A stretch of DNA of 31,265 nt, taken from assembly GCA_964356665.1 (NCBI GenBank), contig CAYHIM010000001.1:1-31265 (forward strand). Reading direction: 5' to 3'. The stretch's first letter is position 1. Each line of letters starts with the position of its first letter. The notes beneath the pieces were generated by a model. The model had not been told where the DNA came from, did no database searches, and saw only the letters and a program-made list of their open reading frames with translations. Source of the stretch: an uncultured Gammaproteobacteria bacterium. GTDB taxonomy: Bacteria; Patescibacteriota; Patescibacteriia; Patescibacteriales; XYC2-FULL-47-12. This document shows, piece by piece, positions 15,590 through 27,607 of the stretch. The translations under genes and the position numbers were made by a program.

Positions 15590-16024
15590 TTATTTACTTA
15601 CCCTAATTGCCTGCCTCACAACGGATATTGATAATAACCCGGTCAGCGCCAGTTGCAATAAAGGACTTAAGCCTAAACCAAAAATCGTCGGCATCATTGG
15701 GCTATAAATCCACTGGTGAAAAATATAAACGGCTTTGTATTCAATAATAGCGGCAACGATGATGCCAGCAAAAATTACGTAGAGACGCCCTGACAGGGCG
15801 TCTCTACGAAACCACCAAAAATTTCTCCAAATTAAAACTCCGCTAAAAAATATTCCGAGCAACAACAGCGTATCCACGCTCGCGGCGTACGCCATTAGCG
15901 GCCAAAAACTTAAATTAAAAGTGTGTGAGGCGTAAAGATACGACGCGTGCCAGGACTCCCAGATAAAATTGCTCACGAACGCCATGAACGCGAACAGAGC
16001 AATAATTTTTACTTTATCTCTCAT
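15590..16024 (-). CDS. Four-TM membrane protein, unknown function
   Basis: 144 aa, hydrophobic, with WESWHASYLY and WIYSPMMPTIFGLGLSPLLQ. Its ATG overlaps the upstream stop (ATGA). Confidence 0.75.
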   Translation of the reverse strand: MRDKVKIIALFAFMAFVSNFIWESWHASYLYASHTFNLSFWPLMAYAASVDTLLLLGIFFSGVLIWRNFWWFRRDALSGRLYVIFAGIIVAAIIEYKAVYIFHQWIYSPMMPTIFGLGLSPLLQLALTGLLSISVVRQAIRVSK

Positions 16025-16746
16025 ACTCTTGCGTTTAATTTTTCATTAAGAACTTTTTTTAAACGGTACCAACTGAAATGTTCATAGACGCTCGACCAAT
16101 ATAAACCAAAGCTGAATGCCCACAGCAATTCTTCTAACGGGACGCCGGAAATGAGTACGCCGGAAATAGCCGCGAAATTCCAAACCGCCTGGACATAACC
16201 GGGGAAAGTAAAATTCAATAGTAAAAAGGTGACGAAATAAACGCCCGTAAACAGCGCGCCGCTGACGAGCATTTTACTGACTAAATCCGGCCGGCAGTAC
16301 CAAGTGGCAAAAAATCCGGCCACTAGAGCAATCATTGCCGCGTAAATTGGATTAAAACTGGTTGCCGCCAATAAAAGCAAAAAAGCTATCGGTGCCGATA
16401 CAACTGCCCAGAAATGGAAGCGGTGCCGCCCGCGGCGATGCTCGCCGGCCGGCATTTTAACGTGGCGCGCCGGCAGCAGCGCTTCGTACATAACAACCAC
16501 GATGCCGCCAACGGCAAAACAGAAAATGAAACTTTCTAAATCAAAGCCGGCGCGGCGCGCTAAATCAAACAACGTGGGCGGGTTCCAATAAGCCGGCACA
16601 AAGAACGGTTCGGTCAGCGCTAACCACATCGTCCAAAAACTAACGCGCCTAATTTCAGGGCGAGAGCCGGAACGAGCAGAAAAAAACACTATCAGCCAAA
16701 CACCCAACAAAAACAAACTAAAAATTAAATACGCGTAGGTATCCAT
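16021..16746 (-). CDS. Lycopene-cyclase-domain-like membrane protein (two repeats)
   Basis: Repeat-type motifs YWNP...GFDLESFIFCF and VWN..AISGVLISGVPLEELLWAF resemble CarR/CrtYc-type domains. Confidence 0.65.
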   Translation of the reverse strand: MDTYAYLIFSLFLLGVWLIVFFSARSGSRPEIRRVSFWTMWLALTEPFFVPAYWNPPTLFDLARRAGFDLESFIFCFAVGGIVVVMYEALLPARHVKMPAGEHRRGRHRFHFWAVVSAPIAFLLLLAATSFNPIYAAMIALVAGFFATWYCRPDLVSKMLVSGALFTGVYFVTFLLLNFTFPGYVQAVWNFAAISGVLISGVPLEELLWAFSFGLYWSSVYEHFSWYRLKKVLNEKLNARV

Positions 16747-16784
16747 AACAACTGCTGTTATTAGATAAAAACTTTATCTTATAG

Positions 16785-17066
16785 TTAGCGTCGGCTTAAC
16801 TGGGCATGGAACCAAATTAACAGCCACGCGCCAACATAAACATACAGCGCTATCTCAATCAAACCCACAGCTAAACTTAAAGGCGTGATAACGACATCGC
16901 CGGCAAATTTTTCCACATTGGCGATGTGCGTTACCCAAGCTAAAAGTCGCAGGGCAGCTGCCGGCCAGAGCGCGACAATTGCCGCGCAGGCAAGGTAAAA
17001 TACTGCCGCTACCCCGGCCGCGGCGAGCGCCCAAGCATGAGCATTCGCTCTGTTTTCTTGGTTCAT
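16785..17066 (-). CDS. Small two-TM membrane protein (DUF5676-like)
   Basis: AAVFYLACA...WVTH pattern, with Cys and His in or near TM segments. Confidence 0.65.
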   Translation of the reverse strand: MNQENRANAHAWALAAAGVAAVFYLACAAIVALWPAAALRLLAWVTHIANVEKFAGDVVITPLSLAVGLIEIALYVYVGAWLLIWFHAQLSRR

Positions 17067-17084
17067 ATTTTTTAACTTAATAAA

Positions 17085-17447
17085 TTAGTCTTTAAGCGCA
17101 TGTTTAGTAATAGCCAAATTACAGCTGTGGTGTTTGCGGCACCAAGCCTCGCATTGCTTTGCCCAGCTTAATTCGGCATAGCGCAACCCGCACTCCGGGC
17201 AAGTGTAAAATTTGGTGGTTGCAGTTTGCCCACTTTCAGTATGGTGCGCCGTTTGTCCGCTATGCCCATGCCCGCGCATCATAAAAATATGTACTAAGGG
17301 ACAAAGCAAAACGAGCAGCCAAATTACATAATCATTTGCGTCTTTAGACCAAAATAACCAAGCCGCGATTACGACCAGCGGCAAAGCGCAGCCGACAACC
17401 ATCAGCCAAAAATGTTTATTGAATATGTTGTCTTTTAGTAAGGACAT
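17085..17447 (-). CDS. DUF2933-like membrane domain fused to a Cys/His-rich C-terminal domain
   Basis: VVGCALPL...LLCPLVHIFMMRGHGH, then CPECG...CEAWC.KHHSC...KH. Confidence 0.75.
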   Translation of the reverse strand: MSLLKDNIFNKHFWLMVVGCALPLVVIAAWLFWSKDANDYVIWLLVLLCPLVHIFMMRGHGHSGQTAHHTESGQTATTKFYTCPECGLRYAELSWAKQCEAWCRKHHSCNLAITKHALKD

Positions 17448-17865
17448 ATAATAAATAAGCGATGCTTAAAAGATTAATCGCTAAACTAATAACGAGCAGG
17501 GGGCGCTGATACTGCCCTAAAAACAGGACGGCGCCGGACAGGCCCCACAGCGGCAATAAATCAACTAAATGATGGGCGCAACAAGCTAACATTGAAACAG
17601 AGGAAGTAGCTCCACTCATTCCCGGGACAGCGCTACTGGTTTGATAATGGACAATTCTTAAATATGACCAAAGGCCAAATTGAACGCCAAAACTAACAAT
17701 AATAGCTATCAATAAATACCAAACTGCCGCTGTCGTTGCCCACGCTTCCTGCCAATTAGGCATCGTCCATGATATCAGTATACCATAGAGCAAACTTAAG
17801 CCGAAGCTGGCAACCGCTCCGCGTTTAATTGAGCGGGTAATTTCTTTTGACCACATATTATTCAA
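17416..17865 (-). CDS. Membrane protein with a CCxHH motif
   Basis: Four TM segments; SSVSMLACCAHHL. Overlaps the next gene by 32 nt. Confidence 0.75.
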   Translation of the reverse strand: MNNMWSKEITRSIKRGAVASFGLSLLYGILISWTMPNWQEAWATTAAVWYLLIAIIVSFGVQFGLWSYLRIVHYQTSSAVPGMSGATSSVSMLACCAHHLVDLLPLWGLSGAVLFLGQYQRPLLVISLAINLLSIAYLLYVLTKRQHIQ

Positions 17866-17875
17866 TAATTAGTTG

Positions 17876-18127
17876 CTATTCCGTAAAACATTCGGCATAG
17901 AGGTCGGGGTGATGCGACATATGTTCTTGCCATTCCGCTTCGGTATAGCCGGGCGGAGTTTGGCATTTGTCCGGCAACTCGGCTTGTAGGGCTTTGGTAA
18001 AATTATTTTGATTATTAATCAATGACGAAACAGCCGGCTGCCTGCCAAATATTCCCCAAGCCGACCAAATTAAACCGCCTAAGGCTAAAATTACTAAGAC
18101 AGTAATAATTAATTTTTCCCATTGCAT
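17876..18127 (-). CDS. Small membrane-anchored protein with a C-x12-H-M-x-HH-x6-C motif
   Basis: Start at MQWEK (18127), TM, then CQTPPGYTEAEWQEHMSHHPDLYAEC. Confidence 0.75.
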   Translation of the reverse strand: MQWEKLIITVLVILALGGLIWSAWGIFGRQPAVSSLINNQNNFTKALQAELPDKCQTPPGYTEAEWQEHMSHHPDLYAECFTE

Positions 18128-18137
18128 AAAATTATTG

Positions 18138-18407
18138 TTAACAGCCGCCGACTTGGGAAGGCAGACCAAGATTAGCGGAAGCGGCCGGCGCGGCTGCGGG
18201 CGCGGCGGCGCCGCGGGCGGAATTAGCCGCCTGCACATAACCGCGCAGGCGGCCAATTTCTATTGACTGGAAAAAAGTCATTAAGAGTAAAATAATCACT
18301 ACTCCGATAATAATGCCGTCTTTAAGCAGCCGAACGCGCTGACGGCGCTGGTCAAAAAGACTGTCTATTTCTTGCGCCGCTGTTGCTTTTAAGGTTGCGT
18401 TGTCCAT
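18138..18407 (-). CDS. Small single-TM protein ending LPSQVGGC
   Basis: 89 aa with a TM, an Ala/Pro linker and a C-terminal GGC. Confidence 0.75.
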   Translation of the reverse strand: MDNATLKATAAQEIDSLFDQRRQRVRLLKDGIIIGVVIILLLMTFFQSIEIGRLRGYVQAANSARGAAAPAAAPAASANLGLPSQVGGC

Positions 18408-18457
18408 AAATTTAATTTTAATTAATAAATGAATTAACAGCCGCCGACTTGGGAAGG
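18138..18457 (-). repeat. Identical 24-bp segment encoding PSQVGGC-stop in two adjacent genes
   Basis: TTAACAGCCGCCGACTTGGGAAGG at 18138-18161 and 18434-18457. Confidence 0.95.
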
Positions 18458-19066
18458 TAAAGACGCGTTAGTAGCGCCCCGACCCTGACTAGCTAAATAT
18501 TTCTGCACGGTTGGCCCGGGAAAAAATACCGCCTTCCATTTATTGGCCTCCTCTAATATCTGCTGGTCGCTCATCGTGTTGCCTTGAGTGGTTAACAAAT
18601 AAGCAATCACGCCGCGCATCGCCGCCGAATGGGCGCAGGCGCACGCTTTGCTTCCGTCCGGAAATACCAAAGTCGTGGCGCCGCAACAAAATTCGCAAGC
18701 CGTCTGCTGGCCAATGGCAATATAACGTTGCAGTAACGTACCAGTTAGTTTATCCTGGCGCGTGTCCTGCTCGAACGGTGATAAAATATTGATGGCCGTA
18801 GCCGGATTGTCAAAACTAATCCCCAGTTTAGCGCCGTAAACCGGCGGCGCGCCGCGCGTTAACATTTTATCTGCCACAGCGGCGATGTCGGCGGGCAAAA
18901 CGCCGCTAGTGGCAGTTGCTCCGGATGCTGAATTGGCTGGCGCGGCGGCATTAGCTTGTGAAGACGCCGCCGCTAACATTTTATTCATCATGCCTAATTG
19001 CCACTGATTAATAATCAGCATAAACAAAAGAACAAATATCAGGGCAATGCCGTATTTTTTTTGCAT
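18434..19066 (-). CDS. Exported Cys-rich protein (CxxCC...CxCxH) ending LPSQVGGC
   Basis: N-terminal TM/signal, ACEFCCG, ACACAHSAAMRG and a C-terminal GGC. Confidence 0.8.
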   Translation of the reverse strand: MQKKYGIALIFVLLFMLIINQWQLGMMNKMLAAASSQANAAAPANSASGATATSGVLPADIAAVADKMLTRGAPPVYGAKLGISFDNPATAINILSPFEQDTRQDKLTGTLLQRYIAIGQQTACEFCCGATTLVFPDGSKACACAHSAAMRGVIAYLLTTQGNTMSDQQILEEANKWKAVFFPGPTVQKYLASQGRGATNASLPSQVGGC

Positions 19067-19091
19067 ACAACTTATGATTAGTAAATAATAT

Positions 19092-19256
19092 TTAGGATTT
19101 ATGGCAACTGCCCGGTTTTGTTCCTTGTTTTAGTTGGTTGATTACTTCCGGGGAAACGCGGCACATCGGGCAATCGCGATTTTGTTTTTCTTTCTTTTGC
19201 TTTTGCCGGGGAGAAAATATTTTTTTTGTTTTTAGTTGAGCCAATAACTTAAACAT
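19092..19256 (-). CDS. Unannotated 54-aa basic CxxC protein
   Basis: Hand translation: MFKLLAQLKTKKIFSPRQKQKKEKQNRDCPMCRVSPEVINQLKQGTKPGSCHKS*. It fills the 19067-19292 gap in the operon orientation. Confidence 0.65.
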   Translation of the reverse strand: MFKLLAQLKTKKIFSPRQKQKKEKQNRDCPMCRVSPEVINQLKQGTKPGSCHKS

Positions 19257-19292
19257 AAATAAGTATATTTAGTAAATAAAACCGATTCGCTT

Positions 19293-20534
19293 TTACACGA
19301 ACCACATTAAAATAATAATGCCGACTGCTACGGCGGCAACGCCTAACCAAAGCTTCCAAGTTTTGGCGGCGTCTGCTTGCCAAGCGGCTATCCGGCTAAG
19401 CGCGTAGTGGTTGCCGACAAAGGCTAATAATACTATCAGCGGCAACACAAACATTACATTATAGAGCAAAAGATAACCGAAGCCCTGCCAAAAATTATTC
19501 CGAGAAGCAAGCAAGCCGATAATCGCGACATAAATTCCGCCGGAACAGGGGAAAGTGCAAAGCCCGACTAAAAACGCGCCAACAATAACTGCCGACAACG
19601 TCCCTTTGGTCAGCCAGCGCTGCAACGCTCCTTGAGAAAAATGCGGTATTTGTAATTTTATAGGAAACCGCGGCAGGTAATAACCGATAATATTTATTCC
19701 GCCCAAAACAATAATCAGCCAAGCGCCGATTTTAGCCATTAGATGCGGCTCATTAGATAAGACGATCGCTTTAAATAATCCTAAGCCAATGCCTAAATAC
19801 GTCAGATAGATAATACCGATGTAGAGACTGCCGTAAAGCGCGATTAACTTTAAACTGCCTTTGAACGTAAACAGAAAAGCGATAAAAAACAACAGTACCG
19901 CAAAGGCGCAAGGATTAATGCCGTCAAGCAGTCCGGTGGAAAGTACCAGCGGCAATAAGGAGCGTTGTTTGTTTTGGCTCGGAAATAATTCCTGCTTCTG
20001 CCAAGAATTAAGATAGGTTGTTAATGGTTCGTCTAAACCATACATTTGCGCGGCCATACCGGGCTGCCAGACCGCATATTTAACATCTTTAATTTGAATG
20101 CCCGACATTCCTAACATCTGGTCTTGGAAAATCAGCATCGGCTGCGGCAGCTGCTTAGTTGCTATCGCCTCGCGCACTCGCGCCAAAGGCACATGCCCGC
20201 CAATAATAACTCTGCCGTCATCAAGAAAGGTCATAATATGACTCTGTAATTCATAGGGGATGTTAAATTTATCCTGCAAAGAATTCAGGTCTCTTCTCAC
20301 CTGCCGGTCGTTTAAATAATCAAATAACTTAACCGTCATTCCTTGCCCTTGTAAGTAAGGCACGAGCTCTTGGGTCAAATACTGATTGCAATCGCCGCAC
20401 GCTTCGTTGTAATAGATATCTGCCGTTTGATAACGTTCCTCCGGCTCCGCCGCCCAAACAAAATGCCAGCTAACTAACAGCAAACCGGCTATCAAGCCGT
20501 TTCTTAGATATTTTTTTAGCTTAAATTTTTTCAT
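19293..20534 (-). CDS. Thioredoxin-like domain plus CcdA/DsbD-type membrane thiol-redox protein
   Basis: Signal peptide, CGDC motif, and TM domain with GLLDGINPCAF and CTFPCSGGIY. Confidence 0.85.
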   Translation of the reverse strand: MKKFKLKKYLRNGLIAGLLLVSWHFVWAAEPEERYQTADIYYNEACGDCNQYLTQELVPYLQGQGMTVKLFDYLNDRQVRRDLNSLQDKFNIPYELQSHIMTFLDDGRVIIGGHVPLARVREAIATKQLPQPMLIFQDQMLGMSGIQIKDVKYAVWQPGMAAQMYGLDEPLTTYLNSWQKQELFPSQNKQRSLLPLVLSTGLLDGINPCAFAVLLFFIAFLFTFKGSLKLIALYGSLYIGIIYLTYLGIGLGLFKAIVLSNEPHLMAKIGAWLIIVLGGINIIGYYLPRFPIKLQIPHFSQGALQRWLTKGTLSAVIVGAFLVGLCTFPCSGGIYVAIIGLLASRNNFWQGFGYLLLYNVMFVLPLIVLLAFVGNHYALSRIAAWQADAAKTWKLWLGVAAVAVGIIILMWFV

Positions 20535-20544
20535 ACATTCTTTC

Positions 20545-21042
20545 TTAATTTACTTTATTCGGGTCAATGGTGATGCTAAAAGTTAAAGTATATTCGTCGC
20601 GCGGATTTTCTGTTTTAAGATAAATAGCGCGCTGAAATGAGCCCTTGGCGTTTTCTAATCCATGGGCCAGCGGATTGTAGGCGGCAATTACCTCCATCTC
20701 TTCGCCCGCGCCTAAGGTAAAATTTGTCCGCGGCAGATTGCCGTGGTCCATGCCTATCGGCGCAGTTATTCTATTGCCTTGGCGCAACTGCGCCGTGGTA
20801 CAGCCGCAGGAGGTAGCTACTTTAACAATGGTGATGTCGCCCGCGCCTATATTTTTAAGGCGGAAAATATGGCTCACGGAAGCGAGTCCGACCACGCCAA
20901 AGTCATAATCACTTTCGCTGATTTCTAACCTGCCCTCGGCTAACGCCACTGATTTAGTATTTTGATTCACGAAGTACCAGCCCACCGCCACTAAGACGAC
21001 TGCTGTTACCCCGATAAGATATTTTAATTGTTTGGTCTTCAT
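20545..21042 (-). CDS. DUF1573-like exported protein
   Basis: TM anchor, DFG, F.LKNIG, TSCGCT, plus an MDH insert. Confidence 0.8.
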   Translation of the reverse strand: MKTKQLKYLIGVTAVVLVAVGWYFVNQNTKSVALAEGRLEISESDYDFGVVGLASVSHIFRLKNIGAGDITIVKVATSCGCTTAQLRQGNRITAPIGMDHGNLPRTNFTLGAGEEMEVIAAYNPLAHGLENAKGSFQRAIYLKTENPRDEYTLTFSITIDPNKVN

Positions 21043-21806: not shown

Positions 21807-24209
21807 CTACTTTGATATTACTCCGGCGCTAAAACGCGCGAATTCAAAGAAAAGAAAAGAAAACAATGCCACCATAATAATGGGCGCGATTAGCGAAAGG
21901 TAATTGGTCCGGCTTGGTTTAAACAACCGTAAAGTCAAAGAATTGCTGACCACCGAAATGGAACTCAAGGCCATCGCTAAACCGGCAAGCTCCGGTTTTA
22001 AGATAATGCCGGCGAATGCCAAAACGCGCGCGGCAATCGGGATGCCGACCACGTTATAAAACAAAGCGAAAAACATATTCTGCTTAATTTTACTGACCGT
22101 TTCGCGGCTCAAATCAATCGCCGCCAAAACATCGCGCAAATCATTTTTAATGATAACAATGCCGCCCGTCTCCATCGCCACGTCGGTGCCGCTGCCCATC
22201 GCTATGCCTAAATCGGCTTGCGCCAGCGCCGGCGCGTCATTGATGCCGTCGCCGACCATCGCGATTTTCTGGCCGCTTGCTTGCAATTTTTTTATTTCGT
22301 TCGCTTTATCTTCCGGCAATACTTCCGCAAGCACTTTGGTGATGCCGGCTTGTTTAGCAATCGCCGCCGCCGTGCGCTCGTTATCGCCGGTTATCATAAA
22401 CACTTCCACGCCGCGCTCTTGCAGCTCGCGCACGGTTTCTACGGCGCTGTCTTTGATGGTGTCCGCTACCGCCACTAAACCTAATATGGTTTGCTCGTTC
22501 GCTAACATCATTGCTGTTTTGCCTTCGCCTTCTAAAACATGCAGTTTCATTTCTGTCGCCTCCAACGTTAAGCCAGCCACATCCGTAATCAGCCGGCGGT
22601 TGCCTAAGAAATATTTTTTTTCATTTATTATTCCTTCCACGCCATGCCCGGGAATTGCCCGGAAATCAACTGTGTCAATCAAAGCAATTCTTTCTTTATC
22701 CGCGTATTTTACAATCGCCTCCGCCAACGGATGTTCGGATTTACTTTCCAGTGAAGCCGCTATCTGTATTATCTCTTTTGTTAATAATTCATTCGTCATT
22801 CGTAATTCGTCATTCTTAATTGTTATAACGTCCGTTACTGCCGGCTGTCCTTTGGTTAAAGTGCCGGTTTTATCAAAAACAATCGCTTTAATCTTACAAG
22901 CCGCTTCCAGCGGTTCGCCGCCTTTAATGAGAATGCCGTATTCCGCGCCTTTGCCGGTCCCGACCATAATCGCGGTCGGCGTAGCGAGTCCCAAAGCGCA
23001 AGGGCAAGCAATAACAATGACGGCGGTAAAAGCCATCAAACTAAAGGTTAAATTCGCGCCTAAAACAAAAAACCAGATGACAAAAGTAAGCGCGGCGATA
23101 ATTAACACTAACGGCACAAACACGGCGGAAATTTTATCCGCCAGCGCCTGAATGGGCGCTTTGGAGCTTTGCGCTTCCTCTACCACGCGGATGATTTGCC
23201 CGAGCGCGGTTTCTGTTCCTACCCGCTCGGCGCGGAACTGGAAACTGCCGTTCTTATTAACGGTTGCGCCATAAACTTTGTCGCCCGCATTTTTTTCTAT
23301 CGGAATGCTTTCTCCCGTCAGCATTGACTCGTCTACGGCGGAAACGCCTTTAGTAATAACTCCGTCCACGGGAATTTTTTCTCCCGGCCGCACCAAGATA
23401 ATATCGCCAATGACTACCTGCTCAATAGGAATATCGCGAGTACTACTATCGCGTACCACGCGCGCGGTTTTTGGCTGCAGCCCAATCAAGCGCTTAATTG
23501 ATTCGGAGGTTCTGCCTTTGGCCTTTGCTTCCAGCCACTTGCCTAAAATGACAAAGGTGATTAAAAAGGCGGCGGTTTCAAAATAAAGCTCGGGGATTTT
23601 TTCACCGCCAATGCCAATCAAACTGCGGTTAGTAATCGCGTAATTAAGATATTGCCATAAACTATAAAAAAATGCGGTGCTCGTGCCAATGGCGATTAAA
23701 CTATCCATGTTAAATGTCCGCAGGCGCAAGCCGCTGTATAACCCGTGATAAAAACCGGCGCCGATAACAAACTGCACCGGGATAGTGAGGAGAAGGGAGA
23801 CTAAACCGATGTAAGACAAAATAACGCGGCCGGGCAAAGCGGGCGCAAAATCAAAAAGCATAAAGTACAGCATGGGCAAACTAAGAATCAAGCTAATTAA
23901 AAATCTCTGCCGATACTTTTTCATTTCCCGCTCCCGTTTCTGCCGCTCGGCTTCCGGGTTGCTTTTATCGGCTAAAACGGCGCGATAACCGGCTTTTTCC
24001 ACGGCCTTGATAAGCTCGGACAAGGAAGCCGCGTTTTCGTCAAATTTTACAATTGCTTTTTCGGTAGCAAAGTTGACGTTTGCTTGTTCTACGCCGGCTG
24101 TTTTTTTAAGCGCATGCTCAATAATTTGCGCGCAGGAGGCGCAATGCATGCCTTCAATATCTAAGGTAGTTAGTTTTTTTATTTCCATATTTTTGTCATT
24201 TATATTCAC
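21807..24209 (-). CDS. copA: Cu(I)-translocating P1B-1 ATPase
   Basis: HMA GMHCASC, TGES, CPC, DKTGT, SEHPL, GDGIND, YN and MALSS. Confidence 0.96.
22791..22818. repeat. Four tandem heptamers inside copA
   Basis: ATTCGTC ATTCGTA ATTCGTC ATTCTTA, encoding [10 protein letters not shown] on the minus strand. Confidence 0.75.
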
Positions 24210-24427: not shown

Positions 24428-26266
24428 TTATTGTACCTTAATTAAACCGCGCGGTACACCCATTGCGCAAGTGATGGGATATTCGCCGGTGTCTTGGGGA
24501 GTAAAATTCATCACAATTTTTTTGCCGGCTTGCAACAACTCGGGCTGATTATACAGCCCCGGCACCATAATCGTACTCATGCAGCCGTAGCCGTTTTCTT
24601 TAGCGTCAATTTCTAACCGTACCGGCTTGCCGGCTTGCACGATAAATGAATTGGGCTGAATGTCGGCATCATAAGTATAGGATGTTTTCAGTACTTGCGC
24701 GCCTTGGCTGTCAGAAGGCGCAACGGAGTTGGTGTTATTGTTTATCTGTCCGTTGTTTGGCGCAAACGGCTTACGCGCCCCGCCACAACCACAGCCGCCC
24801 GCGCCGCAAGCGCTGCCGGTATTGCCGCTGATACTACTATCAAAGGCGGAACGTAAAGCAACGTTATTTATTATCGGCGCCTGGGCGGAGGAATCAATAA
24901 CGTTAAAGCTGCCCGTATACATCCCCATACTGCAGGAAAATTTAATTTGGCCCGCCTGCGTGGGCGTGAACTCCACGATATTTTGGCCCGGCTTTAAGTT
25001 AAAGCGCAGATTCAGCGCCGGCACTACCATGCTGGAAGCGCACGAATACGGCGCCTGGGCGTCAATCAGCCACCGCACCGGCATTCCTGCCCGAATAGTA
25101 AATTGCCGCGGCGAATAGCCGTAATTGCCTTCGGTCATTTTTACTATTTGCGCGCCATCAACAACAGAAACATTAGGGTCGGCAACAACGGCATTTGTTT
25201 GCGCCGCCCGCGCCGAAAAATCTAGGTTCCAGCCGAGCAAACGCAAACCGTTAGTAAAATTAAAGAGAGCTAACATCATTACCACTAACCCGGCGAACTT
25301 AAAGAACCGCTTGGCAAAAATGCCTTTAACGACCGAGGTAATACCGCCGACGCTTAATAGCCCGGGGGCGGTGCCTAAAGCAAACACTCCCATAATCAAA
25401 GCGCCCGCTAGAAAAGTGCCGCTGCTGACGGCGTACAATTGCATCGCCTGCGTAAAGCCGCAAGGCAGAAAAAAAGTCAAGGCGCCGGCTACGGCCGCTT
25501 GCTTATGATTATATTCTTTGATGTGCTGATTCGCGCCTAAGAGGCGGCTGATGCTTTTAGGCAAAGTAAATTTCCAATTCGTCAGCCAAGGAAAAATATC
25601 AATTAATTGCAATCCAACTAAAAGCATCACTAATGCCACCCCAATGGTCAATAAGCCGACTAAATTACCGGACAACTGCAACACGCTCCCCGCTAGGCCG
25701 AGCAATCCGCCGCCCAAAGCATAGCCGGCAACGCGCCCCATATTAAAGAAAAGATGCGGCCGGAATTTCTGCCACGGACTTGCCTCGGGGTGCGCTTCGG
25801 CGTGGCGCGTAGCAATGCCCAATACTATGCCGCCCACGAGCGCCATGCAGGTAGAAAACCCAGCCGTGAGCCCGACGAGCAAAACGAGCGGCAAACTAAA
25901 CGATTGCGCCGCTAAATTAGCGCCGAAATTCAAGATGCCGAAATTTTTTAACGCTAACCATGCTACCGCTAACACAAAGAAGGCGATGCCTAAATCCTGA
26001 TAATCGCTCCAGTTGCGGTTAAGCCAAGCTTTGGGCTGGTTAATTCCTACTTCATAGCCCGCCGCCCGAATAGCTGCGGCGATTTCATTATCATTGGGTT
26101 TCTGCCCGTGGTAATAAATGTCAACGCCCGCCCGCGCGACGCTCGCTTGCGCGTTCGCTACTTCCGGAATTTGAGATAATTTTCCCTCTACCAGCATCTC
26201 GCAGGAGCGGCAGTGCATGCCTTTGATAGGCACACATATTTTTTCATGTTTTTTATGTGAAGACAT
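24428..26266 (-). CDS. HMA plus DsbD_2/TauE-like membrane domain plus two cupredoxin-like domains
   Basis: GMHCRSC; GFSTCMALVGG and FLPCGFTQ; CASS...CSMGMY; linker CGAGGCGCGG; CMST...CAMG. Confidence 0.88.
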   Translation of the reverse strand: MSSHKKHEKICVPIKGMHCRSCEMLVEGKLSQIPEVANAQASVARAGVDIYYHGQKPNDNEIAAAIRAAGYEVGINQPKAWLNRNWSDYQDLGIAFFVLAVAWLALKNFGILNFGANLAAQSFSLPLVLLVGLTAGFSTCMALVGGIVLGIATRHAEAHPEASPWQKFRPHLFFNMGRVAGYALGGGLLGLAGSVLQLSGNLVGLLTIGVALVMLLVGLQLIDIFPWLTNWKFTLPKSISRLLGANQHIKEYNHKQAAVAGALTFFLPCGFTQAMQLYAVSSGTFLAGALIMGVFALGTAPGLLSVGGITSVVKGIFAKRFFKFAGLVVMMLALFNFTNGLRLLGWNLDFSARAAQTNAVVADPNVSVVDGAQIVKMTEGNYGYSPRQFTIRAGMPVRWLIDAQAPYSCASSMVVPALNLRFNLKPGQNIVEFTPTQAGQIKFSCSMGMYTGSFNVIDSSAQAPIINNVALRSAFDSSISGNTGSACGAGGCGCGGARKPFAPNNGQINNNTNSVAPSDSQGAQVLKTSYTYDADIQPNSFIVQAGKPVRLEIDAKENGYGCMSTIMVPGLYNQPELLQAGKKIVMNFTPQDTGEYPITCAMGVPRGLIKVQ

Positions 26267-26836: not shown

Positions 26837-27607
26837 TCATCTCTTCTCCAACTCTATTAGTAAAGCATCAATGGCTGATTTTAATTGATTGTAGGAAACC
26901 GCGCCGGAAATCGGAATCTTTTCGCCTTTAACTAAAATCACCGAATAAGGGGTGCCGCCGGCGCCGCCCGCGAGCAATGCTTGGGATAATTCACTAGCAA
27001 CTTTATTAGCGTATTTGCCCGAGTCCAAGCAGGCAAGAAAATCTTGTTGGTTAAGGCCGATTTGCGCGGCAATACGGGGCAATTGCTGCGGATCAAGCCC
27101 ATCATTGGAAGGCGTTATAAAAAATATCGCATCAAGGTACTGCCAAAATTTATCATTTCCTCCCAGTTCCGCCGCGCACTCGCTAGCTTCCGCTTCTTTG
27201 CGTGCTTTGGTATGCAAAGAGTCAATTGGGAAATGGCGGTATACCCAGCTAACTTTACCCGGATAAGCAGTAACTATTTGCTGTAACACCGAATGGAACT
27301 CTTTACAAAAAGGGCATTCCAAATCAGCAAACTCAATAATAGTAATCGGGGCGGTACGCACGCCGCGCACATGGTCGTAGCGCGCCAGCGGAGCAATTGT
27401 AGTGCCCTGATTATTGTTTGCCCTTGCGGCTAAATTTTGGTCGCGGGAGGTTTGGCCCTGCAATGCGGGCAAAGTAGTATTGCCTGTTCCGGTTTCCCGC
27501 GCCGGATTAGGGATTTTGGCTATTACTAAAAATAAAAACCCTATTGCTGCCAATAAAACAATGATGATAACCGAGGCAATTAAGATAGTTGTATTTTTCT
27601 TTAGCAT
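26837..27607 (-). CDS. Membrane-anchored DsbA-family thiol-disulfide oxidoreductase
   Basis: DHVRG, IIEFADLECPFC, WVYRHFP and GTP cis-Pro loop. Confidence 0.92.
   Translation of the reverse strand: MLKKNTTILIASVIIIVLLAAIGFLFLVIAKIPNPARETGTGNTTLPALQGQTSRDQNLAARANNNQGTTIAPLARYDHVRGVRTAPITIIEFADLECPFCKEFHSVLQQIVTAYPGKVSWVYRHFPIDSLHTKARKEAEASECAAELGGNDKFWQYLDAIFFITPSNDGLDPQQLPRIAAQIGLNQQDFLACLDSGKYANKVASELSQALLAGGAGGTPYSVILVKGEKIPISGAVSYNQLKSAIDALLIELEKR

Follow-up and report, generated by a model that had tools for sequence, protein, structure and literature searches.

What is the function of a compact series of small genes, most of them encoding proteins with cysteine or histidine motifs, that lies just downstream of the copper pump gene copA? 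This question is raised by contig CAYHIM010000001.1, taken in its entirety as the window of this study (31,265 nucleotides, nt), which belongs to a 0.92-Mb, 92%-complete genome and has its closest relatives in Candidatus Falkowbacteria from groundwater. Eleven open reading frames (ORFs) follow each other on its minus strand at 15590-21042, being read from 21042 towards 15590 with gaps of -32 to +38 nt, and 89 nt separate this run from an upstream block comprising copA, a SHOCT gene and the gene of a 134-residue protein (p134). Such tight packing on one strand had been claimed by the original prediction, made from the sequence alone, and could be confirmed, as could the Cys/His motifs it listed (present here as CPMC, two LPSQVGGC ends, C..HMSHHPD..C and ACCAHH). 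Four of the products are central here, namely two proteins ending with Gly-Gly-Cys (A and B), the HHPD mini-protein (H) and a membrane protein with a CCAHH, or more generally CCxHH, motif (CC). The favoured answer, to which a probability of roughly 0.55 is given, is that the run represents the Falkowbacteria-type version of an accessory envelope module of the bacterial candidate phyla radiation (CPR) and of the DPANN archaea, which would operate as a reductant-fed extracytoplasmic copper/thiol system beside CopA.

ORFs were called in 88 fetched loci besides the window, and the set was cut to 83 loci with distinct A proteins. Neighbour families were defined by iterated hidden Markov models built from the window proteins and from recurrent neighbours. 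Fifty of the 83 loci, with flanks of at least 3 kb on each side of A, are referred to as full loci. Of the 83 loci, 78 have a small GGC-ended ORF, B, together with A, in nearly every case as the next gene downstream in the same orientation. Three of the remaining loci are contig ends, which gives 78 of 80 for the loci in which B would be visible. Besides A itself, only 86 of the 9,704 ORFs of the related loci end with GGC, almost all of them directly after A, and the occurrence of these ends in A and B is far beyond chance. Both proteins share a common plan, with an N-terminal anchor, a polar segment of the Q-x-x-Q-L type, a low-complexity linker and the terminal sequence LPx[M/Q]VGGC-COOH.

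The tails of the two partners are matched. At position -5, four residues before the Cys, the pair is M/M or Q/Q in 83 of 85 A-B pairs, and rare variants are also found in both proteins of a locus (QQGGC in L037, QQIGGC in L073). This M/Q state changes 12-13 times along a tree built without the tail, and B follows A in all six independent pairs on supported branches (p ~0.03). The last 24 nt of A and B are identical at a mean of 17.6 positions out of 24 (~73%), the window pair reaching 22/24; this partial identity indicates that selection by a common partner, and not gene conversion alone, keeps the tails matched. Met and Gln are interchangeable axial ligands of copper in cupredoxins, and their alternation in the tails thus fits copper chemistry. 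Met/His motifs, such as MNYEMHG or MMARMHP, are present in the B linkers of some DPANN loci. No selenocysteine variant of the tail was found, i.e. no ORF ending with ...[QM][VI]GG before a TGA codon; such a variant would have demonstrated a redox role.

Protein A combines an N-terminal transmembrane (TM) anchor, a low-complexity linker, a helical domain of ~140 residues and the C-terminal arm. Its hallmark is an invariant CExCC...CxCxH cluster. Among 100 A sequences the invariant positions are G72, P74, C124, E125, C127, C128, G138, C142, C144 and H146, to which M150, R151, K178, F182 and P183 are added, and the terminal V-G-G-C is kept in more than 90%. In the AlphaFold2 model (predicted local distance difference test score, pLDDT, of 89.7), a long helix at the N-terminus is followed by a disordered linker and by the helical domain, whose Cys cluster is surrounded by short knuckle-like strands; the coil tail scores 82-86. 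A Foldseek comparison of this model with the PDB gave no match (best E 1.8), and the A profile retrieved nothing from the PDB sequences at E up to 10. PCYCGC (PF13798) had been a lead for A, as a neighbour in some DPANN loci and a weak ESM-Atlas match; it was ruled out as a relative (hhalign probability 0.7%, no Pfam match). A scan of 10 long A relatives for fusions yielded one informative domain only, an N-terminal FKBP-type peptidyl-prolyl isomerase domain in P0186 (456 residues).

In a 90%-clustered database, 137 homologues of A were found, the named ones being from Falkowbacteria, Buchananbacteria, Kerfeldbacteria and Uhrbacteria in the CPR and from Diapherotrites and Micrarchaeia in DPANN. 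A profile search detected 319 clusters among 1.84 billion representatives, and a pattern scan with one genome per species gave ~400 carriers. The best 80 carriers include 60 archaeal and 16 bacterial ones; four of these 16 are labelled Gammaproteobacteria and are probably mislabelled bins, since they fall within CPR clades and show a CPR-type gene order. The A family is thus essentially confined to the ultra-small cells of CPR and DPANN. The module is present in 11 of 401 sampled Patescibacteria (2.7%) and in 39 of 215 genomes (18%) of the DPANN phylum of archaeon AR10, and is therefore accessory rather than core. It also appears to be horizontally mobile. In the tree of the globular part of A, the bacterial rows cluster, but even so a minimum of three switches between Bacteria and Archaea is required; a Woesearchaeota sequence (L051) lies inside a CPR clade with 99% support and the DPANN phyla are intermixed, which points to repeated transfer within and between both radiations.

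How much of the run belongs to the module was deduced from the census of neighbours. The gene of H is found within 3 kb of A in 35 of the 50 full loci. This protein has a single TM segment and an ectodomain of ~30 residues with the pattern C-x(13-16)-H-x2-H-H-P-x5-C, and its alignment shows a Cys2His3 set of invariant residues (C54, H68, H71, H72 and C79). CC is present within 3 kb in 25 full loci, and a CHxxC membrane family (m130) takes the equivalent place in 11 further ones lacking CC, which leaves 14 of the 50 with neither protein within this distance. The invariant residues of CC (Q62, M92, C95, C96, H98, H99 and D102) include a M..CC.HH..D motif within a TM helix, and Pfam searches with 20 members of the family gave nothing at E 0.01 or better, apart from isolated chance matches of single members. 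Some CCxHH proteins carry an extra C-terminal domain of ~100 residues with a GGHH-R-x-G motif and no Pfam match (L031 12389-13258, L049 1829-2746, L076 12338-13204). Examples of the CHxxC family in DPANN loci are L005 12307-12699 and L071 10930-11367, together with members in L032 and L081; in two loci an ORF of this family is also matched by the HHPD profile.

A CcdA/DsbD-like gene lies within 3 kb of A in 29 full loci, and a thioredoxin-repeat protein is found in 15 more. A family of 160 residues with a GE-WC-KH motif (c159), absent from the window, is encoded between B and H in 22 loci and within 3 kb of A in 15 of the 50. DUF5676 is present in 34 of the 83 loci (within 3 kb in 16 full loci) and DUF2933 in 26 within 5 kb (within 3 kb in 9 full loci), these counts being rough for such short TM families because they derive from own ORF calls and iterated models on a small set. 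The usual order is A, B, CcdA/thioredoxin, in some loci c159, then H, CC or m130, DUF2933 and DUF5676. The recurrent core consists of A, B, H, CC or its CHxxC alternative, and the CcdA/thioredoxin component, with DUF2933 and DUF5676 as less regular members. DUF1573, an addition typical of CPR, occurs in 10 of the 83 loci, all bacterial except one archaeal locus (L070), and lies directly upstream of the CcdA gene in all of them but L061. The 54-residue protein is found in five loci, all from CPR, directly upstream of A. The lycopene-cyclase-like gene is also restricted to five loci, and the last four-TM ORF and p134 to fewer still (Table 1), mostly in close relatives. The original prediction of a ten-gene unit had thus to be abandoned, as these rarely found genes exclude a fixed set of ten or eleven: only the core is conserved, and the rest are lineage-specific additions. 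The neighbourhood check that it had proposed, a lack of co-occurrence being named among its grounds for refutation, turned out in its favour: in CPR as well as in DPANN, these genes are found near one another and near copA.

The module is linked to copper genes. A P-type ATPase gene is found within 10 kb of A in 45 of the 83 loci and within 3 kb in 20 of the 50 full loci, whereas ~4% would be expected within 10 kb, given one or two of these ATPases per genome of ~1 Mb. The Cu(I) signature CPC/YN(x4)P/MxxSS is present in 30 of the 39 full-length neighbouring pumps, that of the window included. In the latter, CPC at residue 402, DKTGT at 446, YN(x4)P at 718 and MxxSS at 746 define a P1B-1 ATPase, which is the sole P-type ATPase found in the genome (one PF00122 match). 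Cupredoxin_1 genes occur in 26 of the 83 loci, HMA proteins recur as well, and a multicopper oxidase lies ~10 kb from A in one locus (L003). DUF2933 is also known as a neighbour of copA and of a cupredoxin gene in copper-resistant Alteromonas (PMC8478169). As for regulators, a BlaI/CopY-type repressor and its M56 BlaR-like partner are encoded in 28 loci, mostly in divergent orientation upstream of A in DPANN, and CsoR-family genes are found in six CPR loci. The C-H-C copper fingerprint is seen in the CsoR-like proteins encoded directly before A in L077, in L037, and beside copA in L001. A C-H-H variant is encoded in L001 (8936-9217), L012 (5733-6011), L020 (1790-2062) and L061 (18476-18751), heading the operon in the first two; this variant is not a secure copper sensor.

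The second branch of the module is the putative supply of reductant, represented in the window by a 413-residue protein that the original prediction had called Trx-CcdA. Members of the CcdA family are built on a six-helix core in which two pseudo-symmetric helices each contribute an essential Cys. The same layout is found in the membrane domain of the fusion, where P208-C209 and C326/C330 are invariant, and the AlphaFold2 model (pLDDT 79.7) shows an eight-helix bundle after residue 194. The family assignment by profile is less firm: the window protein scores 14.3 bits against DsbD_TM (PF02683), below the gathering cut-off of 27.1 (E 0.025), and three of seven homologues match, up to E 9.5e-5. 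The CcdA label is based on this sub-threshold match, on the stronger ones of the homologues and on the invariant Cys in two TM helices. The exported domain has its own invariant residues, C46-x2-C49 and G113-H-V-P116 (including H114). Together with the Cys of the membrane domain, this arrangement fits a CcdA reducing its own fused thioredoxin-fold domain. Residues 34-168 match a DUF411 cluster of the ESM Atlas by structure (template-modelling scores 0.59/0.63 over 118 residues). CopG, the DUF411 protein, is a periplasmic copper-resistance protein with a thioredoxin-like fold, in which CxCC and adjacent Met residues hold a Cys-bridged Cu4 cluster (PMC7558416). The DUF1573 protein of the window, with 39.5 bits for a cut-off of 26.1, also matches the NCBIfam OS_HP2 (seleno)protein domain (E 3.8e-8), and the alignment of its CxC with that family suggests a redox use.

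The scheme proposed below builds on what was observed, namely which genes are present and conserved, how they are linked to P1B-1 ATPases and copper regulators, which residues are invariant and how the two tails co-vary. That the proteins bind metal, in which direction they would transfer it and in which redox state they are kept is surmised from these observations. The invariant residues are nearly all soft-metal or thiol-redox ligands. Taken together with anchoring on the outside of cells devoid of a periplasm, a Cu(I) exporter as partner and a reductant conduit, this makes a copper-tolerance module the most economical explanation. The terminal thiolate of the arms, aided by the Met or Gln four residues earlier, would pick up Cu(I), either exported by CopA or arriving from outside the cell. 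The ion could then be passed to the Cys cluster of A, to the Cys2His3 mini-protein and to the intramembrane CC-HH site. Electrons crossing the membrane through the CcdA domain, which is fused to the CopG-like thioredoxin domain and partnered in CPR with the CxC protein DUF1573, would keep the thiols of the module reduced. The net effect would be copper tolerance of an envelope without periplasm. The earlier proposal of a reductant-fed Cu(I) capture, relay or sequestration system thus stands as far as the conduit, a regular member, and the copA linkage are concerned, its Cu(I) handling being hypothetical.

Several observations weigh against this interpretation. No pump is found within 10 kb of A in 38 of the 83 loci, although many of the contigs are short. 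The regulators are mixed, since four CsoR-like genes are of the C-H-H type and the BlaI/BlaR pairs are not specific for copper. The DUF411 (PF04214) match of the exported domain stays below the cut-off both in the window (E 0.1) and in one homologue (E 7.7e-4), and a Foldseek search of the PDB with the whole fusion model gave nothing significant, only weak thioredoxin/glutaredoxin matches, without recovering CopG. Instead of the CxCC of CopG, the domain carries a CxxC, which reads CGDC in the window and CGHC, CSHC or another variant in homologues; it would thus be CopG-like in fold at most, and not a CopG. One Cys at the end of an arm would suit disulfide exchange just as well. Finally, the census is based on own ORF calls and iterated models over a small set, and the sequencing runs containing the region are groundwater DNA runs only, with no transcript runs.

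The CcdA-type conduits or thioredoxin proteins of most loci would also suit thiol repair only, in which a relay like that of Scs or DsbD-DsbC, with disulfide reductase/isomerase activity, would undo copper-catalysed wrong disulfides on surface proteins, the arms being redox shuttles and not metal ligands. DsbA-like genes are frequent neighbours, one of them further upstream in the window, the CxC of DUF1573 points to redox chemistry by its match to the selenoprotein family, and the Scs system links copper with envelope thiol repair (PMC10907172). However, the arms carry one Cys each, with no CxxC in a thioredoxin fold, and the invariant His and Met residues of H, CC, tail position -5 and the B inserts would be unneeded for disulfide exchange, which leaves such a restricted role rather unlikely. 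Moreover, ScsC binds Cu(I) besides taking part in thiol chemistry (PMC8900818), so that repair and copper roles may coexist. The cupredoxin genes raise another question, namely whether the module, instead of protecting from excess copper, acquires it and loads these neighbouring proteins, in analogy to Sco/PCuAC, CopG-CueO or CcoA-CopZ-CcoI. A cupredoxin fusion belongs to the copA sub-operon of the window, a multicopper oxidase lies near A in L003, and a transfer of copper from CopG to CueO has been proposed (PMC7558416). Such a supply function seems nevertheless quite improbable, as most loci have no cupredoxin nearby and a search for multicopper oxidases (PF07732) in the genome of the window, 92% complete, gave none. 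The original statement that the window holds no copper-enzyme client is correct in part only, given the cupredoxin fusion at 24428-26266. CsoR- or CopY-type control normally switches genes on at high copper, which also speaks against supply. In addition, haem-copper oxidases are almost never found in CPR and DPANN (PMC7507113).

The conservation of eight C-terminal positions, co-varying between A and B, is also what would be expected from a shared recognition partner, and LPx[M/Q]VGGC might be a processing or anchoring signal, recognised by an enzyme modifying or attaching the terminal Cys (lipid, thioester or cell-wall link). VGGC resembles a lipobox, the enzyme could perhaps be the CC-HH or CHxxC membrane protein, CC having a Cys/His/Asp constellation within the membrane, and an isoprenylcysteine carboxyl-methyltransferase (ICMT) sits in the DUF2933 copper clusters of Alteromonas. 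This signal is nonetheless judged very unlikely: neither Pfam nor NCBIfam revealed a transpeptidase, an Lgt-like or a methyltransferase family among the module proteins, the CC/m130 proteins are missing near A in the 14 full loci mentioned above, and A and B are already anchored by their N-terminus. A broader proposal, itself distinctly unlikely, is that LPx[M/Q]VGGC-COOH is a new functional end of proteins, common to bacteria and archaea, on which the CC-HH/CHxxC protein acts. The Cys would be covalently modified or attached, in a new system of C-terminal Cys anchoring or processing, or the two matched arms would form a new two-armed carrier shuttling a cargo, bound covalently or by coordination, between the new-fold Cys5His domain and the membrane site; either case, if true, would be a mechanism without described counterpart. 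A sulfur carrier comes to mind because the layout is similar to that of SoxYZ with SoxV (a CcdA) and SoxW/S, where the carrier has a Gly-Gly-Cys arm (GGCGG in SoxY) and is served by a CcdA-type conduit and thioredoxins; the arms of A and B would then bear persulfide or sulfane sulfur. Some CsoR-family members sense persulfide, and a rhodanese cluster was a weak ESM-Atlas neighbour (score 0.46). The chances of this explanation are nevertheless very slim. The Pfam/NCBIfam scans revealed no Sox family, and no Sox, rhodanese or sulfide-oxidising genes were found in the window or in the Pfam-labelled loci inspected gene by gene, the neighbours being copper genes. The model of A is all-helical, not the beta-sandwich of SoxY, its arm ends with ...VGGC-COOH rather than GGCGG, and there are two co-evolving carriers.

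The favoured copper/thiol module has partial counterparts in known systems. Like Scs (ScsB/ScsC/ScsD) of Proteobacteria, it is copper-linked and includes a DsbD-family protein that would feed extracytoplasmic thiol proteins (PMC10907172, PMC8900818). Scs is a copper-induced operon that combines an ScsB-type DsbD homologue with the thioredoxin-fold partners ScsC/ScsD. On the side of the module, a CcdA-type conduit and a probable thioredoxin-fold domain can be recognised, and the run at 15590-21042 is devoid of ScsC/DsbA-like genes, that of the window lying at 26837-27607. Scs has no counterparts of A, B, H and CC, the short CcdA of the module, with its fused DUF411-like domain, differs from ScsB, and the hosts are CPR and DPANN without periplasm, all parts of the module being membrane-anchored. 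The exported domain of the fusion shares with CopG a probable thioredoxin-like fold, a ...GHVP segment and the proximity of copA, and differs by its CxxC, its Pfam score below the cut-off and its fusion to a CcdA membrane domain. In the Mer chain (MerP to MerT/MerC/MerF), an extracytoplasmic thiol protein is likewise paired with a small membrane protein having vicinal Cys in a helix, an analogy which suggests that a thiophilic metal may be handed over to or through the membrane. No homology to MerT, MerP or MerA was detected, the vicinal Cys pair in a helix being all that CC shares with MerT/MerC; in the module this pair is followed by HH and D, and the partner pump is a Cu(I) exporter. The tail of eukaryotic Ctr1, a C-terminal HCH sequence, hands Cu(I) to partner proteins and is, like the arms, short, flexible and Cys-containing, but Ctr1 is an unrelated protein, with a cytosolic tail, and part of an importer. 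The merR-copA-cupredoxin-DUF2933-ICMT clusters of Alteromonas and other Gammaproteobacteria resemble the module by the association of DUF2933 and a cupredoxin with copA (PMC8478169); they lack A, B, H, CC and CcdA, and the DUF2933 protein of the window has an extra Cys-rich C-terminal domain.

CPR and DPANN represent a large share of microbial diversity, with genomes of ~1 Mb and no periplasm, and the module is one of the few multi-gene units common almost exclusively to both. Its core proteins are unannotated, and A is confidently modelled without a match to any solved fold. A literature search found no paper describing the A/B pair, the HHPD mini-protein or the CCAHH protein, and nothing on DUF5676 or on the function of PCYCGC. 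Arms that bind Cu(I) would represent a novel kind of copper chaperone outside the cytoplasm, and modified arms would amount to a novel signal for sorting or processing. The invariant residues, matched tails and fixed partners make the module testable with small soluble constructs and peptides.

The features of the window are listed in Table 1, in their order of reading.

Table 1. Genes of the copA block, of the 11-ORF run and of its surroundings in the window (residues, aa; E values from Pfam).
Feature	Coordinates	Strand	Remarks
DsbA-like gene	26837-27607		further upstream
Two-TM protein, 132 aa	26372-26770		plan similar to that of p134
HMA - DsbD_2 membrane domain - Cupredoxin_1 fusion, 612 aa	24428-26266	-	first gene of the copA sub-operon
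CopZ-like HMA protein, 67 aa	24220-24423	-	HMA E 5.9e-4, below cut-off; 10 nt upstream of copA
CopA, P1B-1 Cu(I) P-type ATPase	21807-24209	-	E1-E2_ATPase E 3e-64; HMA E 1e-18
Single-TM SHOCT protein, 85 aa	21548-21805	-	SHOCT E 1.6e-4, below cut-off; 12/83 loci
p134, two-TM protein with small Cys cluster, 134 aa	21132-21536	-	lineage-specific; no Pfam; 3/83 loci
DUF1573 Ig-like anchored protein, 165 aa, SCGC (family motif SC-x-CT)	20545-21042	-	E 6e-10
Probable thioredoxin-fold + CcdA-type fusion, 413 aa	19293-20534	-	DsbD_TM E 0.025, below cut-off
Lys-rich soluble CPxC protein (CPMC), 54 aa	19092-19256	-	few CPR lineages
Core protein A, 210 aa, end LPSQVGGC	18434-19066	-	no family match
Core protein B, 89 aa, end LPSQVGGC	18138-18407	-	TM anchor and Ala-rich linker, no globular domain
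Core protein H, 83 aa, C..HMSHHPD..C	17876-18127	-	start is the ATG giving MQWEK
Core protein CC, 149 aa, ACCAHH, small polytopic membrane protein	17416-17865	-	no Pfam
DUF2933 two-TM protein, 120 aa	17085-17447	-	E 2e-9; 37.8 bits vs 21
DUF5676 two-TM protein, 93 aa	16785-17066	-	E 2.3e-7; 32.1 bits vs 27.6
Membrane protein with one lycopene-cyclase-type (CrtYc/d) domain, 241 aa	16021-16746	-	Lycopene_cyc E 1.3e-16; 61.3 bits vs 27
Four-TM ORF, 144 aa, no family	15590-16024	-	no Pfam; 3/83 loci
PurL, single chain, 1322 aa	11458-15426		163 nt after the operon

All products of the run except the 54-residue one have at least one predicted TM segment. The labels DUF1573 (SCGC), DUF2933, DUF5676 and lycopene cyclase of the original prediction are all above the Pfam gathering cut-off, and A, B, H, CC, the 54-residue protein and the last ORF have no Pfam or NCBIfam match. 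The DUF2933 protein combines a His-rich loop with its C-terminal extension, which is zinc-ribbon-like.

In the copA sub-operon, the 612-residue fusion matches DsbD_2 (E 1.2e-31), Cupredoxin_1 (E 3e-15) and HMA (E 6e-9), and a 443-residue version of it adjoins copA in a Buchananbacteria locus (L001). The copA block is flanked by two two-TM proteins of similar plan, p134 and the 132-residue one. A short C...ECG motif as in p134 is found in a 98-residue ORF of L001 (9214-9510) that follows the CsoR-like gene.

At the other end of the run, a scan for promoters and terminators remained near the shuffle expectation and was uninformative on the operon limits. Within the last ORF lies a perfect GC-rich hairpin of 14 bp with a T-run behind it (15808-15778, minus strand), which is either a terminator closing the operon inside a doubtful ORF or a coding palindrome. 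With respect to the lycopene-cyclase-type gene, a distant DPANN archaeal locus (L074) encodes, at one gene's distance from copA, a 233-residue membrane protein with this domain, flanked by a gene for DUF5676 and by a small ORF of HMA type; the gene of the window may thus be a rare passenger of copper islands rather than a chance neighbour. The PurL protein encoded beyond the run is of the large fused form, which is unusual in CPR.

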